DNA from: a plasmid
Sequence record: NZ_CP033919.1
DNA length: 25,644 nucleotides
Direction: 5' to 3' (one strand)
Below are positions 15,766 to 19,007 of this stretch, piece after piece; position 1 is the first letter of the stretch; each line of letters starts with the position of its first letter. Position numbers and translations under genes: made by a program. Below the pieces are notes generated by a model that made no database searches, had not been told where the DNA came from, and saw only the letters and a program-made list of their open reading frames with translations.

Positions 15766-15945
15766 TTATCCGCAGAAGTTACAAGATGCTCCTATACAGC
15801 TCCAGCTTCCTCCTTCAAGGCTTTGGTCTGCATCACCAACATTCTTTCCTCCTTTTACCTTATTTAATTGATCTTCCTGTAGTTTTGTAACAGCGTCCTT
15901 GCTAAGCGTTACTTCTTTTCCTAGTTTTACTGATTTGTTGTTCAT
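15766..15945 (-). CDS. lanA: Precursor peptide P1 (59 aa): MNNKSVKLGKEVTLSKDAVTKLQEDQLNKVKGGKNVGDADQSLEGGSWSCIGASCNFCG
   Basis: Translated by hand from the reverse strand (not in the ORF track because it is under 60 aa). Has the K-rich leader ending LNKVKGG, a second GG, and an S/C-rich C-terminus. Confidence 0.8.
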   Translation of the reverse strand: MNNKSVKLGKEVTLSKDAVTKLQEDQLNKVKGGKNVGDADQSLEGGSWSCIGASCNFCG

Positions 15946-15992
15946 TGTTATAATTTTTATTGGTTAATATTTGGTATATAGTTGATTATTGA

Positions 15993-16172
15993 TTATCCAC
16001 ATCCGTTGCAAGATGCTGCCACACAGCTGAAGCTTCCGCCTTCAAGCTCTTGGTCCATATCGCCAACCTTCTTTCCGCCTTTTACCTTGTTTAACTGATC
16101 TTCCTGTAGTTTTGTAACAGCGTCCTTGTTAAGCGTTACTTCTTTGCCTAGTTTTACTGATTTGTTGTTCAT
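15993..16172 (-). CDS. lanA: Precursor peptide P2 (59 aa): ...KGGKKVGDMDQELEGGSFSCVAASCNGCG
   Basis: Hand translation. Same leader as P1. Core SFSCVAASCNGCG. Confidence 0.8.
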   Translation of the reverse strand: MNNKSVKLGKEVTLNKDAVTKLQEDQLNKVKGGKKVGDMDQELEGGSFSCVAASCNGCG

Positions 16173-16212
16173 TGTTGTAATTGTTATTGGTTAATATTTG
16201 GTATATAGTTGA

Positions 16213-16392
16213 TTATCCACACCAGTTGCAAGATGCTCCGATACAGCTAAAGCTTCCTCCCTCAAGGTCTTGGTCCATATCGCCAACCTTCTTTCCGCCT
16301 TTTACCTTGTTTAATTGGTCTTCCTGTAGTTTTGTAACAGCGTCCTTGTTAAGCGTTACTTCTTTGCCTAGTTTTACTGATTTGTTGTTCAT
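16213..16392 (-). CDS. lanA: Precursor peptide P3 (59 aa): ...KGGKKVGDMDQDLEGGSFSCIGASCNWCG
   Basis: Hand translation. The plus-strand ORF 16181..16414 in the track is its antisense artefact. Confidence 0.8.
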   Translation of the reverse strand: MNNKSVKLGKEVTLNKDAVTKLQEDQLNKVKGGKKVGDMDQDLEGGSFSCIGASCNWCG

Positions 16393-16432
16393 TGTTGTAA
16401 TTGTTATTGGTTAATATTTGGTATATAGTTGA

Positions 16433-16612
16433 TTATCCACACCAGTTGCAAGATGCTCCGATACAGCTAAAGCTTCCTCCCTCAAGGTCTTGGTCCATAT
16501 CGCCAACCTTCTTTCCGCCTTTTACCTTGTTTAACTGATCTTCCTGTAGTTTTGTAACAGCGTCCTTGTTAAGCGTTACTTCTTTGCCTAGTTTTACTGA
16601 TTTGTTGTTCAT
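16433..16612 (-). CDS. lanA: Precursor peptide P4 (59 aa), protein-identical to P3
   Basis: A 220-bp direct repeat of the P3 unit, with 2 synonymous differences in the LQD codons. Confidence 0.8.
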   Translation of the reverse strand: MNNKSVKLGKEVTLNKDAVTKLQEDQLNKVKGGKKVGDMDQDLEGGSFSCIGASCNWCG

Positions 16613-16660
16613 TGTTGTAATTGTTATTGGTTAATATTTTGATCTATAGTTGATTATTGA

Positions 16661-16840
16661 TTATCCACATCCGTTGCAAGATAATCCTACACAGCTCCAG
16701 CTTCCTCCTTCAAGGTCTTGGTCCATATCGCCAACCTTCTTTCCGCCTTTTACCTTGTTTAACTGATCTTCCTGTAGTTTTGTAACAGCGTCCTTGTTAA
16801 GCGTTACTTCTTTGCCTAGTTTTACTGATTTGTTGTTCAT
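16661..16840 (-). CDS. lanA: Precursor peptide P5 (59 aa): ...KGGKKVGDMDQDLEGGSWSCVGLSCNGCG
   Basis: Hand translation. Confidence 0.8.
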   Translation of the reverse strand: MNNKSVKLGKEVTLNKDAVTKLQEDQLNKVKGGKKVGDMDQDLEGGSWSCVGLSCNGCG

Positions 16841-16888
16841 TGTTGTAATTGTTATTGGTTAATATTTTGATCTATAGTTGATTATTGA

Positions 16889-17065
16889 TTATCCACATCC
16901 GTTGCAAGATAATCCTACACAGCTAAAGCTTCCCTCAAGGTCTTGGTCCATATCGCCAACCTTCTTTCCGCCTTTTACCTTGTTTAACTGGTCTTCCTGT
17001 AGTTTTGTAACGGCATCCTTGTTAAGCGTTACTTCTTTTCCTAGTTTTACTGATTTGTTGCTCAT
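16889..17065 (-). CDS. lanA: Precursor peptide P6 (58 aa): MSNKSV...KGGKKVGDMDQDLEGSFSCVGLSCNGCG (single G before the core)
   Basis: Hand translation. It has a one-codon deletion relative to P5. The antisense ORF 16878..17087 in the track agrees with this. Confidence 0.75.
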   Translation of the reverse strand: MSNKSVKLGKEVTLNKDAVTKLQEDQLNKVKGGKKVGDMDQDLEGSFSCVGLSCNGCG

Positions 17066-17112
17066 TGTTTTTATTTTTATTGGTTAATTTTTGATCTATA
17101 GTTGATTATTGA

Positions 17113-17292
17113 CTATCCACATCCGTTGCAAGATGCTCCGATACAGCTCCAGCTTCCGCCCTCAAGGCTTTGGTCTGCATCACCTACATTCTTTCCACCT
17201 TTTACCTTGTTTAACTGATCTTCCTGTAGTTTTGTAACGGCGTCCTTGTTAAGCGTTACTTCTTTTCCTAGTTTTACTGATTTGTTGTTCAT
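17113..17292 (-). CDS. lanA: Precursor peptide P7 (59 aa): ...KGGKNVGDADQSLEGGSWSCIGASCNGCG (TAG stop)
   Basis: Hand translation. Confidence 0.8.
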   Translation of the reverse strand: MNNKSVKLGKEVTLNKDAVTKLQEDQLNKVKGGKNVGDADQSLEGGSWSCIGASCNGCG

Positions 17293-17339
17293 TGTTGTTA
17301 TTTTATTGGTTAATTTTTTGATCTATAGTTGATTATTGA

Positions 17340-17519: not shown

Positions 17520-17567
17520 TGTTGTTATTGTTATTGGTTAATTTTTTGATCTATAGTTGATTATTGA

Positions 17568-17747
17568 TTATCCACATCCGTTGCAAGATGCTCCGATACA
17601 GCTCCAGCTTCCGCCCTCAAGGCTTTGGTCTGCATCACCTACATTCTTCCCGCCTTTTACCTTGTTTAATTGGTCTTCCTGTAGTTTTGTAACAGCGTCT
17701 TTGTTAAGTGTTACTTCTTTGCCTAGTTTTACTGATTTGTTGCTCAT
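17568..17747 (-). CDS. lanA: Precursor peptide P9 (59 aa), protein-identical to P8
   Basis: Hand translation. The antisense ORF 17557..17769 in the track agrees with this. Confidence 0.8.
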   Translation of the reverse strand: MSNKSVKLGKEVTLNKDAVTKLQEDQLNKVKGGKNVGDADQSLEGGSWSCIGASCNGCG

Positions 17748-17788
17748 TGTTGTTATTGTTATTGGTTAATATTTTGATTCATAATTGA

Positions 17789-17965
17789 TTATTCACAATA
17801 ATTACAAGTAATATGGAAACAACTAAAGCTTCCCTCAAGGTCCTGATCCATATCCCCTACTTTCTTTCCTCCTTTCAGTTTATTCAACTGATCTTCCTGT
17901 AGTTTTGTAACAGCATCCTTGTTAAGGGTTACTTCTTTGCCTAGTTTTACTGATTTATTGCTCAT
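17789..17965 (-). CDS. lanA: Precursor peptide P10 (58 aa): MSNKSV...LNKLKGGKKVGDMDQDLEGSFSCFHITCNYCE
   Basis: Hand translation. Confidence 0.75.
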   Translation of the reverse strand: MSNKSVKLGKEVTLNKDAVTKLQEDQLNKLKGGKKVGDMDQDLEGSFSCFHITCNYCE

Positions 17966-18006
17966 TGTTGTTATTGTTATTGATTAATATTTTGATTCAT
18001 AATTGA

Positions 18007-18183
18007 TTATTCACAAGAATTACACGTCATATTTATACAGCTCATACTTCCCTCAAGGTCCTGATCAATTCCGCCAATTTTCTTTCCGCCTTTTACTTTG
18101 TTTAATTGATCTTCCTGTAGTTTTGTAACAGCATCCTTATTAAGGGTTACTTCTTTTTGTAGTTTTACTGATTTGTTGCTCAT
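18007..18183 (-). CDS. lanA: Precursor peptide P11 (58 aa): MSNKSVKLQKEV...KVKGGKKIGGIDQDLEGSMSCINMTCNSCE
   Basis: Hand translation. Confidence 0.75.
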   Translation of the reverse strand: MSNKSVKLQKEVTLNKDAVTKLQEDQLNKVKGGKKIGGIDQDLEGSMSCINMTCNSCE

Positions 18184-18204
18184 TATTATTAATTTTTAAA
18201 TTTG

Positions 18205-18381
18205 TTATTCACAAGGATAGTTACAAGAGGTTGCAATACAGCTAAGGCTTTTTGGGGTATCCTGATCTATTACTTTCTCTTTTCCGCCTTTCAATTTATT
18301 TAATTGATCTTCCTGTAGTTTAACAATAAGATCTTTATTGATTATAGCTCCTTTTCCTAGTTTTACTGATTTTTTGTTCAT
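18205..18381 (-). CDS. lanA: Precursor peptide P12 (58 aa): MNKKSVKLGKGAIINKDLIVKLQEDQLNKLKGGKEKVIDQDTPKSLSCIATSCNYPCE
   Basis: Hand translation. The leader is more diverged. Confidence 0.7.
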   Translation of the reverse strand: MNKKSVKLGKGAIINKDLIVKLQEDQLNKLKGGKEKVIDQDTPKSLSCIATSCNYPCE

Positions 18382-18409
18382 TATTATTAGTTTTTTGAGA
18401 TTTATAATT

Positions 18410-18598
18410 TTAGCACCTATTACATGTATTCCCTATGCAGCTTATACTTTCTGTATCGATGGTTGGGGAAATATCCAGGGAAGACCCGGACCCCTTCAGT
18501 CCTCCTTTTAGTTTGTTCAGCTGATCTTCCTGAAGCTTGGTAATGGCATCTTTATTGAGTGTGGTATTTCTTCCTAGTTTTACTGATTTTTTGCTCAT
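18410..18598 (-). CDS. lanA: Precursor peptide P13 (62 aa): ...LQEDQLNKLKGGLKGSGSSLDISPTIDTESISCIGNTCNRC
   Basis: From the ORF track. Same leader family. Has a longer Ser/Thr-rich core and no second GG. Confidence 0.8.
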   Translation of the reverse strand: MSKKSVKLGRNTTLNKDAITKLQEDQLNKLKGGLKGSGSSLDISPTIDTESISCIGNTCNRC

Positions 18599-18614
18599 GA
18601 TAATTGCTTTTTAT

Positions 18615-18806
18615 TTACATACATTTATTACAACTGTTCTTTATGCAGCTAAAGGTGTCTTGAGGGTCCAGATCGTTGGTAGGGTTTAAACCTAGCTGTC
18701 TTGAATTGATTCCTCCCTTTAATTTGTTTAGATGATCCTCCTGAAGCTTGGTAATCGTATCTTTATTCAGTAATACCGTTTTTCCTAGTTTGGGTTGTTT
18801 CTTCAT
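18615..18806 (-). CDS. lanA: Precursor peptide P14 (63 aa): ...LQEDHLNKLKGGINSRQLGLNPTNDLDPQDTFSCIKNSCNKCM
   Basis: From the ORF track. Confidence 0.8.
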   Translation of the reverse strand: MKKQPKLGKTVLLNKDTITKLQEDHLNKLKGGINSRQLGLNPTNDLDPQDTFSCIKNSCNKCM

Positions 18807-18821
18807 AATTTTGGTGTTTTT

Positions 18822-19007
18822 TTAAAGAGCATCGCATTGTAAACTATTACATGAATGCATTAAACAACTTAGAGTAGCATCCATCTCCTGTTCTCTAGAA
18901 CCAGTACCCCCTTTCAATTTGTTAAGCTCAGTCTCCTGAAGTCTGGTAATAGTATCTTTAGTAAGAATTACCTTTTTTTCTAATTTTACTTGCTTTTTGC
19001 TCATCAT
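18822..19007 (-). CDS. lanA: Precursor peptide P15 (61 aa; the start may be the second Met): ...LQETELNKLKGGTGSREQEMDATLSCLMHSCNSLQCDAL
   Basis: From the ORF track. Confidence 0.8.
   Translation of the reverse strand: MMSKKQVKLEKKVILTKDTITRLQETELNKLKGGTGSREQEMDATLSCLMHSCNSLQCDAL

Follow-up and report, generated by a model that had tools for sequence, protein, structure and literature searches.

What do fifteen small genes, laid head to tail on one plasmid, encode, and why are there so many of them? The question arises from NZ_CP033919.1, a sequence of 25,644 nucleotides from Chryseobacterium sp. G0186 that was analysed as a whole (the window), in which positions 15766-19007 are taken up by an array of genes, P1 to P15. 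An initial annotation, made from the letters alone, had read them as lanthipeptide precursor genes served by neighbouring modification enzymes. Our analysis leads to a similar reading with changes of substance: we put at about 80% the probability that the array holds the structural genes of a plasmid-borne class I-type, that is LanB-dependent, lanthipeptide cluster of the Bacteroidota "L1a leader" kind. What is distinctive here is the array itself, which is unusually large, plasmid-borne and demonstrably recombining.

The precursor array

Fifteen co-oriented small genes had been proposed, and fifteen are present: minus-strand open reading frames (ORFs) starting with ATG, 58-63 amino acids long, that occupy exactly positions 15766-19007 and follow one another from P15 down to P1 in the order of transcription. 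Their starts lie 227, 220, 220, 228, 225, 227, 227, 228, 218, 218, 198, 217, 208 and 201 bp apart, which bears out the proposed period of 198-228 bp. Tandem Repeats Finder, applied independently, delimited an array at 15778-18184 with a period of 227, 10.7 copies, 90% matches and a score of 3302, and this repeat is far beyond chance. The LanC-proximal genes P1-P11 (15766-18183, minus strand) encode 58-59 amino acids each in units of 218-228 bp; the promoter-proximal genes P12-P15 (18205-19007, minus strand) encode 58-63 amino acids at spacings of 198-217 bp. At 16181, 16878 and 17557 the antisense strand of the repeat reads through without a stop, and the resulting plus-strand ORFs were correctly dismissed as artefacts of the array. 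We regard the minus strand as the coding strand because purifying selection is strong in its frame (the ratio of nonsynonymous to synonymous substitution rates, dN/dS, is 0.06 in the leader), and coding of the repeat on the plus strand was rejected for the same reason.

The leader places these genes in a known family. In P1-P11 it reads M(N/S)NKSVKLGKEVTLNKDAVTKLQEDQLNK(V/L)KGG and is followed by an acidic stretch of 12-13 residues and then by the core S-x-S-C-x-x-x-(S/T)-C-N-x-C-(G/E). The claim that all fifteen genes share this leader was exact for P1-P11, but P12-P15, which are about 50-60% identical overall, keep only the skeleton K..KL....L.KD..TKLQE..LNK.KGG. All fifteen precursors match NCBIfam NF038153 (class I lanthipeptide leader L1a), a 32-position leader model with a curated cut-off of 22 bits, at 29.1-41.5 bits (P1-P11 at 38-41.5 bits); the match covers leader residues 1-33 and ends exactly at the second glycine of KGG. 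With LanB, LanC-like and C39-ABC (ATP-binding cassette) genes adjoining, these scores uphold the identification as lanthipeptide-type precursors with a conserved double-glycine leader. Public records likewise label the precursor proteins "class I lanthipeptide". The motif (V/I/L)xLxKx5L occurs in every one of them, and an LxLxKx5L...GG leader has been described for those class I LanAs of Bacteroidetes whose clusters include a C39 protease (Walker et al., 2020; PMC7268733). On a side note, some partial entries named "class I lanthipeptide" are attributed to Bacillus sp. SIMBA_006 and SIMBA_033; 86-94% identical to the plasmid genes and located on contigs of 264 and 291 bp, they probably represent cross-contamination among SIMBA assemblies and not a Bacillus gene.

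The hydrophobic positions of double-glycine leaders are occupied in all fifteen precursors (V/L at -4, L at -7, L at -12 and V/I at -15). Because of this pattern and the intact catalytic triad of the C39 peptidase described below, cleavage is predicted after Gly33. A second cleavage at "EGG" was considered and rejected: this motif is present in 8 of the 15 precursors only and has Asp at -7, with no hydrophobic residue there. From precursors cut after Gly33, mature peptides of 25-31 residues are expected; the 15 genes specify 12 different ones, and each has exactly three cysteines and a net charge of 0 to -3.

The cores proved more uniform than had been described. Instead of twelve cores in one frame, 15 of 15 precursors carry [S/T]xSCxxx[S/T]CNx(1-3)C within their C-terminal 12-17 residues, and the S, C, [S/T], C, N and C of this scaffold are invariant in all copies. 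The three supposedly longer, Ser/Thr-rich cores belong to P13-P15, in which it is the stretch from Gly-Gly to the identical C-terminal motif that is longer, the core not being different. The C-terminal scaffolds of P12-P15 read SLSCIATSCNYPCE, SISCIGNTCNRC, TFSCIKNSCNKCM and TLSCLMHSCNSLQCDAL, and their post-GG stretch is longer than in P1-P11.

Variation is indeed concentrated towards the C terminus. Among P1-P11, amino acid-variable codons number 4 of 33 in the leader, 5 of 13 in the linker and 7 of 13 in the core (core versus leader, Fisher p = 0.006), and dN/dS is lowest in the leader (0.06), intermediate in the 13 residues that follow Gly-Gly (0.17) and highest in the core (0.35). Within the core, dN/dS is 0.02 for seven scaffold codons and about 1.2 for six variable positions, figures that are descriptive only, the positions having been picked after viewing the alignment. 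Replacements at the variable positions are mostly conservative (W/F/L/M; I/V/F; G/A/H/N; A/L/I/M/T; G/F/W/Y/S; G/E). To call the cores "hypervariable" is too strong: seven positions are essentially fixed, about six vary, mostly among hydrophobic or small residues, and 12 products only are encoded. The core variation is limited combinatorial variation on a rigid scaffold.

Nucleotide comparisons support the proposal of recent tandem duplication or unequal recombination. P1-P9 are nearest to copies in the same array (92-99% identity) and more distant from copies on sister plasmids (87-93%). For P12-P15 the array offers no close paralogue; positional orthologues on sister plasmids (84-92% nucleotide identity) come nearest. 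By these comparisons the array is two-layered, with four old promoter-proximal genes that are orthologous across the sister plasmids and eleven young LanC-proximal genes derived from duplication and recombination within the array. As had been noticed, P3 and P4 encode the same protein (2 synonymous nucleotide differences plus spacer indels) and P7-P9 nearly so, P8 and P9 being identical in protein and P7 differing from P8 by N2S alone. The 3' halves of P8 and P9 are identical, and nine synonymous differences fall in leader codons 9-33, so that a recombination junction lies inside the gene. Two alternative post-GG segments, KNVGDADQSLEGG and KKVGDMDQDLEG(G), are joined to different cores, and sister plasmids with 94-95% identical LanC-like A differ in unit order and content. 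Such signatures fit unequal crossing-over and gene conversion among the 220-228-bp units. Sister plasmids have identical P13, P14 and P15 cores while the residues from Gly-Gly to the core differ, which points to purifying selection on the C-terminal part. Since these cores are unchanged and the nine substitutions between P8 and P9 are all synonymous, we take the genes to be functional.

When a genome collection was scanned with the precursor profile, the sister plasmids of C. oncorhynchi and SIMBA_028 were the sole hits, the pattern being too strict for a phylum-wide census. The short-read sister assemblies (C. oncorhynchi, 24,821 bp; SIMBA_028, 24,126 bp; M5A1_1a, 24,789 bp; a metagenome contig, 24,610 bp) are all interrupted within the array, at one end or at both, and further pieces of it remain as stray contigs of 294-585 bp. 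Sister-plasmid precursor counts of at least 12, at least 10 and at least 9 are minima because the contigs end inside the array. C. joostei-like sister-plasmid arrays were also seen in metagenomes (L006 in SRR1633007, human skin; L003 in ERR699787); their occurrence in human-associated metagenomes indicates that the plasmid family is present in skin or environmental samples, beyond isolates.

Enzymes for modification and export

One modification-enzyme set had been assumed for the fifteen precursors. The plasmid instead encodes two full-length LanBs, 28% identical to each other, and two LanC-like proteins, about 15-18% identical. In both LanB1 (4275-7259, minus strand; 994 amino acids) and LanB2 (9520-12564, minus strand; 1014 amino acids), the glutamylation domain PF04738 and the elimination domain PF14028 are matched end to end with E from 1e-51 to 1e-105; in LanB2 the Pfam matches cover positions 2-648 of 649 of Lant_dehydr_N and 1-255 of 255 of Lant_dehydr_C, and in LanB1 both domains are full length. 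The best solved relative of LanB1 is 9g04 (E = 2e-59), followed by NisB (E = 1e-35). Among the related loci presented below, its closest relative is the LanB of L026, which is there paired with a canonical zinc-ligand LanC. LanB2 is 34-35% identical to the LanBs of L017 and L023 and represents the LanB type that always accompanies LanC-like B and a luciferase-like (LLM) flavin-type oxidoreductase.

The LanC-like proteins are not the ordinary cyclases of the initial annotation. LanC-like A (14600-15736, minus strand; 378 amino acids; Pfam LANC_like, E = 3e-21) and LanC-like B (13479-14603, minus strand; 374 amino acids; E = 5e-13) exceed the LANC_like cut-off of 23.2 bits with 75.7 and 48.8 bits, respectively, and both are without the Cys-Cys-His zinc site. 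At the columns of the NisC zinc ligands C284, C330 and H331, the profile alignment places V246, I294 and F295 of LanC-like A; LanC-like B has T244 (S246 in the MAFFT alignment), F297 and F298. The equivalent of the catalytic NisC His212 is kept in both proteins, as H183 in A and H178 in B. LanC-like B contains a single cysteine (C137) in 374 residues, so that no zinc site is possible in it, and in its orthologues from Flavobacterium, Puia, L023 and L026 the motifs WSNSD and RF(Y/N)(F/Y)G replace WCxG and CHG. A phmmer search with this protein against solved structures gave nothing at E <= 1; the relationship is seen by profile and by hhalign, which matches it to the LanC_A profile at 96% probability.

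Relatives of LanC-like A numbered 8 proteins in a word-indexed search and 5,836 in an exhaustive profile search. Among the 149 best cluster representatives of the family, Cys/Cys/His is kept in 122-125 and not in 27, and the zinc-free form is thus an established sub-lineage rather than a decayed gene. No canonical zinc-ligand LanC is present on the plasmid. L026 has a third, canonical LanC (599-1771, with WCYGD and FCHGTSG) that adjoins the LanB1 homologue, and this partner is without counterpart on the plasmid.

Two other lanthipeptide classes were considered and set aside. Membership of class II was rejected since LanC-like A scores 47 bits against the LanM cyclase domain, a partial match far from the cut-off of 304, and no LanM is found on the plasmid. 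A class III or labionin system (LanKC, SxxSxxxC) was rejected as well: no kinase or lyase domain of the class III kind occurs in the window, the core motif differs, and the resemblance is to the cyclase domain only, at E = 0.014 in one comparison and below threshold in another.

The LLM oxidoreductase itself (12531-13466, minus strand; 311 amino acids; Pfam Bac_luciferase, E = 3e-16) has TIGR03558 as best NCBIfam match, below cut-off, and sits between LanC-like B and LanB in every related locus. By analogy, it would be a tailoring enzyme for a redox step. GarO-type thioether oxidation in actagardine is one precedent for such a step. Another precedent in lanthipeptide clusters is the LanJC-type reduction of dehydroalanine to D-Ala (PMC7268733).

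Export and leader removal would fall to LanT, a C39 peptidase/ABC exporter (7341-9608, minus strand; 755 amino acids as listed) with Pfam C39, ABC_membrane and ABC_tran domains. Its C39 triad of Cys, His and Asp (QMDCGPASL, WEQNHFVVL, IADPGKG) aligns with those of LahT150 (6mpz) and PCAT1. The listed ORF overlaps the end of LanB2 by 89 nucleotides (9520-9608). The true start is probably the methionine at residue 23, because the gene call on a sister plasmid is 733 amino acids long and the C39 alignment begins near residue 20. The plasmid carries no membrane-fusion or TolC-type partner for the exporter and no LanP, LanI or LanFEG.

The gene cluster, its plasmid and its relatives

All these genes belong to one co-oriented lanthipeptide gene cluster at 2385-21545, about 19 kb or about 75% of the plasmid. 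The first cluster gene (19176-21545, minus strand) encodes an outer-membrane beta-barrel protein of 789 amino acids (Pfam CarboxypepD_reg and OMP_b-brl_3) that is TonB-dependent-receptor-like and has a signal-peptide-like hydrophobic N terminus; neither a Plug domain nor a TonB box was detected in it at E <= 0.001. In the four lineages whose upstream region is visible, the barrel gene comes first, directly upstream of the precursor array: on this plasmid, in L028 (5513-7891), in L029 (5135-7539) and in L026 (7513-9921). Its product could serve as an export pore, as an uptake receptor or in immunity.

Directly upstream of the array lies a sixteenth small gene (19017-19154, minus strand), which the initial annotation did not mention. 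Its 45-amino acid product has a different Gly-Gly leader (...LDNEQLQKYTGG) and a Cys-free tail of 14 residues, RRPTVRYEIDNYNQ. The gene is kept in position in all sister plasmids, and its mature part, RRPTVRYE(I/V)DNYN(Q/L), is nearly invariant, even in C. oncorhynchi. It resembles TIGR04149, a Bacteroidetes GG-leader family, weakly and below threshold (E = 0.05), and the Flavobacterium, Puia and L026 clusters are without it. Judged by its sequence, the peptide may be an exported signal or autoinducer, a candidate ligand for the regulatory pair at the far end of the cluster. This pair consists of a membrane histidine kinase (PF06580; 3104-4270, minus strand) with hydrophobic N-terminal segments and a LytTR response regulator (Pfam; 2385-3104, minus strand), and it is also found in L026 and Puia.

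Hits in scans of the plasmid for Sigma-70 promoters and for terminators were about as many as chance predicts, or barely more. The Bacteroidota -7 motif TAnnTTTG occurs 40 times in the whole window against 35 expected. On the minus strand there is one copy at 21568-21575, 23 nucleotides before the ATG of the barrel gene, and one at 7304-7311, 45 nucleotides before that of LanB1; the coding strand of the array has none. As motif counts are at chance level we claim no promoter, and these matches are a lead only.

The window is a complete closed circular plasmid, linearised inside parA. Closure follows from an intact ParA-type ORF of 257 amino acids that spans the end-to-start junction (25313-25644 joined to 1-443, minus strand) and is identical at 252 of 257 positions (98%) to the ParA of a sister element. 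The backbone further comprises a HigB toxin of 105 amino acids with a 118-amino acid partner gene (728-1385, minus strand), an ORF of 339 amino acids that is without family match (22303-23322, minus strand), a Toprim-like ORF of 412 amino acids (23315-24553, minus strand), an ORF of 256 amino acids, and six tandem 21-bp iterons, GGATAATGTCTCCGTAAAAT, at 22178-22303, with a lone extra copy at about 21957-21977. The iterons and the 339- and 412-amino acid ORFs are probably the replication origin and the initiator/primase. With the whole 25.6-kb sequence as query, PLSDB, a collection that does not include the plasmid under study, gave as sole match the HigBA region, at 75% nucleotide identity, in two Empedobacter brevis plasmids from shrimp. 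The plasmid gave no hit in Rfam or tRNA scans. Between the response regulator and HigBA, a plus-strand ORF of 120 amino acids (2034-2396) has no family match; a gene of the same length is called at the matching position of the C. oncorhynchi plasmid (L007, 285-647).

Related loci were reached by tracing back the contigs on which zinc-free relatives of LanC-like A and B lie, and they place this module in unrelated Bacteroidota. A complete Flavobacterium chromosome (L028) has the barrel gene and eight precursors with a B-type LanC-like protein, LLM, LanB, LanT and an A-type LanC-like protein, and a complete Puia chromosome (L029) has the barrel gene and five precursors with two LanC-like proteins, LLM, LanB and LanT. 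In a metagenome locus of 52% GC (L026/L015), the barrel gene and five precursors are found with A- and B-type LanC-like proteins, LLM, LanB and a C39-ABC protein; upstream of them lie a second LanB paired with the canonical zinc-ligand LanC, a kinase and a LytTR regulator. Three low-GC metagenome contigs (L020, L022 and L023) carry 6, at least 6 and at least 4 precursors, the barrel gene not being seen in the available stretches. The metagenome scan, which amounted to 8 loci, showed arrays of 4-6 but no distribution. The related loci, too, build their cores from [S/T]-C dipeptides in repetition with C-N at the end, TCANASCAASCNRNSCN and SLSCLAASCVASCNANSCN being examples.

As a rule, clusters of this family, with its barrel, LanC-like and LLM genes, carry several precursors in an array. 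The copy number had been placed at the extreme end for lanthipeptide loci. Fifteen is the largest array among the related loci examined, about twice the largest resolved count elsewhere (8), but arrays of 5-8 are normal in the family, and the plasmid array is therefore about a two-fold expansion of a family trait.

Competing explanations and known systems

How such a cluster might work can be outlined from its genes. One long minus-strand transcription unit would probably start upstream of the barrel gene (at about 21.55 kb) and run through to the kinase and the regulator. The 33-residue leader would recruit LanB2, LanB1 or both for Glu-tRNA(Glu)-dependent dehydration of the 3-4 scaffold Ser/Thr residues. 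The three invariant cysteines could then add to the dehydro-residues and form up to three thioether rings, guided by the pair of zinc-ligand-free LanC-like proteins as in the case of the PedA15 cyclase, and LLM could, by precedent, add redox tailoring by converting leftover dehydroalanine to D-Ala or by oxidizing a thioether sulfur. The C39 domain of LanT would cut after Gly33 and export a net-anionic peptide of 25-31 residues, the barrel protein may handle its passage or re-uptake across the outer membrane, and the kinase and LytTR pair would regulate the operon. Over time, the four old genes are held by purifying selection while the eleven-unit block expands, contracts and reshuffles, giving 12 products that differ at about six positions.

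Several points weigh against reading the array as precursors of a LanB-dependent lanthipeptide cluster. We infer every chemical step from the genes, and the same holds for ring topology, co-transcription, the role of the barrel and the biological activity of the products. The Cys-Cys-His site by which NisC-type cyclases activate the thiol is missing from both LanC-like proteins; cyclisation may therefore proceed by another mechanism or without an enzyme, or may fail to take place. With donor beside acceptor in the [S/T]-C dipeptides, ring topology is unpredictable. Anionic products (net charge 0 to -3) and the lack of immunity genes misfit a classical cationic lantibiotic. The need for two LanBs is unexplained, and the canonical zinc LanC that partners the LanB1 type in L026 is absent from the plasmid. 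The 12-22 residues between Gly-Gly and the scaffold are unaccounted for, and promoter and terminator scans gave nothing decisive.

Among the alternatives, the strongest concerns why there are many copies and not what the genes are, and it is compatible with their being lanthipeptide precursors: copy number may mainly reflect gene dosage, with a few favoured peptides amplified, and neutral turnover of a recombination-prone repeat, the differences being drift in a tolerant scaffold and not a selected library. That P7-P9 give one product and P3-P4 another (12 products from 15 genes), that the variable positions, 6 codons with dN/dS of about 1.2, cannot be told from neutral ones, that the substitutions are conservative and that unit content differs between near-identical plasmids all speak for it. 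However, resolved relatives keep 5-8 mutually different precursors, and the old genes P12-P15 are mutually distinct yet conserved between plasmids, so that diversity itself appears maintained; we hold the dosage explanation to be a real but minority possibility. A quite different suspicion is that the fifteen copies are an assembly artefact, an expansion or collapse of the 227-bp repeat. The worry is real for short-read drafts, and every such sister-plasmid assembly breaks inside the array. Here, the circle closes with an intact ParA ORF, all units are distinguishable at the nucleotide level by substitutions or spacer indels, the "identical" pairs included, and unit order follows a coherent gradient from old to young copies, which makes an artefact highly improbable.

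As to the products, the peptides might not be antibiotics but signals or metal-binding peptides, taken up or sensed via the TonB-receptor-like barrel and the kinase/LytTR pair. The barrel gene comes first in four lineages, the anionic products have a high content of Cys or thioether, and no immunity or LanFEG genes occur on the plasmid. Nanomolar Zn(II) binding is reported for the pinensins, themselves class I lanthipeptides of Bacteroidota (PMC13532221), and a lack of antibacterial activity for other Gram-negative lanthipeptides (PMC11270710). These points are all circumstantial, though; a dozen variants are hard to square with one metal or one receptor, neither a Plug domain nor a TonB box was detected in the barrel protein at E <= 0.001, and three cysteines all engaged in thioethers would leave no free thiols for metal. 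We therefore regard a signalling or metal-binding role as doubtful, if worth keeping in mind. Catalytically dead LanC-like proteins, with linear dehydrated, spontaneously cyclised or disulfide peptides as products, would explain why all three zinc ligands are missing from both proteins and why no canonical LanC accompanies them. Yet both proteins are conserved with the cluster across distant lineages and keep the His212 equivalent and Gly-rich repeat motifs, class III cyclase domains are likewise without a zinc site, and an odd number of cysteines is unsuited to disulfide pairing. In the PedA15 system, as described in citing papers, peptides are cyclised although the cyclase is without zinc ligands. 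Loss of catalysis is thus very unlikely in our view, and we retain class I-type precursors processed by LanB and LanC-like enzymes as the preferred reading.

The interest of the locus lies partly in application. Peptide engineering has a demand for class I lanthipeptide enzymes that work on a wide range of natural substrates, and the known natural systems in which one enzyme set serves many cores are class II. The plasmid would offer a compact test bed, with every gene in about 19 kb and 12 natural substrates on one scaffold of 12-13 residues. It could also help to explain thioether formation by zinc-free LanC-fold proteins and the purpose of Gram-negative lanthipeptides, and its sister plasmids are a ready series for following how a precursor array for peptides made by the ribosome and modified after translation expands and reshuffles. 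A bolder view, which we consider rather unlikely, is that the cluster family makes structurally new, small anionic thioether peptides by zinc-independent cyclisation for a role beyond that of a lipid-II-type antibiotic, such as diversified signals or metal-binders handled via the barrel, and that in Chryseobacterium it moved onto a dedicated 25-kb plasmid and became a fast-evolving, horizontally mobile peptide library, the class I counterpart of the prochlorosins.

No concept is changed by the locus. The precursor family, its leader, the link to a C39 exporter and a zinc-free cyclase are already known, and the precursors were annotated automatically. A literature search, with the two most relevant papers outside its reach, brought up no account of the plasmid family or of the group of cores built on [S/T]C repeats, and none of a constant barrel gene or so long an array in class I. 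The family of Walker et al. (LxLxKx5L...GG, NF038153 lant_leader_L1a, PF28317) agrees with the plasmid cluster in leader motif, Gly-Gly end and C39 protease/transporter; it is defined by the leader only, and the [S/T]C-repeat core, the array layout and the enzyme set are outside its definition. PedA15.1/PedA15.2 of Pedobacter lusitanus NL19, known to us via citing papers (PMC10849128, PMC11270710, PMC12328550), are LanB-dependent class I peptides with a cyclase without canonical zinc ligands (PMC10849128). As these papers describe it, that system shares with the plasmid its Bacteroidota class I nature, multiple precursors, a Gly-Gly leader cleavable by LahT150-type C39 proteases and the zinc-ligand-free cyclase. 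It has two precursors as against fifteen, and the citing papers report no plasmid location, LLM, second LanB or outer-membrane barrel gene for it.

Two further kinds of Bacteroidota class I lanthipeptide differ in their precursors. The pinensins of Chitinophaga pinensis, made with a split LanB (PMC9680876), and ChmA of Chryseobacterium sp. OV715, which was fully dehydrated in E. coli only with GluRS/tRNA(Glu) from the producer (PMC9993889), each have a single precursor with a longer, unrelated core and no tandem array. The nisin cluster NisABTCIPRKFEG resembles that of the plasmid in its full-length LanB with glutamylation and elimination domains, separate LanC-fold protein, ABC exporter and two-component regulator. 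However, NisC has a Cys-Cys-His zinc site that the LanC-like proteins are without, and NisT is without a protease domain, the nisin leader being removed by NisP at a non-GG site, whereas LanT has its own C39 domain. Nisin also differs by its FNLD leader box, immunity genes, cationic product and OmpR-type regulator, the plasmid regulator being of LytTR type.

Double-glycine pheromone circuits with LytTR regulators, such as ComCDE and those of the Blp/Pln type, offer a parallel for the 45-amino acid peptide, whose Gly-Gly leader is hydrophobic at -4, -7 and -12 and precedes a short unmodified tail; a C39-ABC protein, a membrane kinase and a LytTR regulator complete the likeness. The plasmid kinase is of the PF06580 (LytS/YehU-like) kind and not of the HPK10 type. 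Finally, the prochlorosins with ProcM and SyncA with SyncM, class II systems of marine cyanobacteria, have in common with the array many precursors, a conserved leader, differing cores and few enzymes. Those systems use one bifunctional LanM for largely dispersed precursors with unrelated cores and ring patterns, whereas the plasmid has LanB and LanC-like proteins and a strictly tandem array on one scaffold; the resemblance is one of logic only, not of membership.

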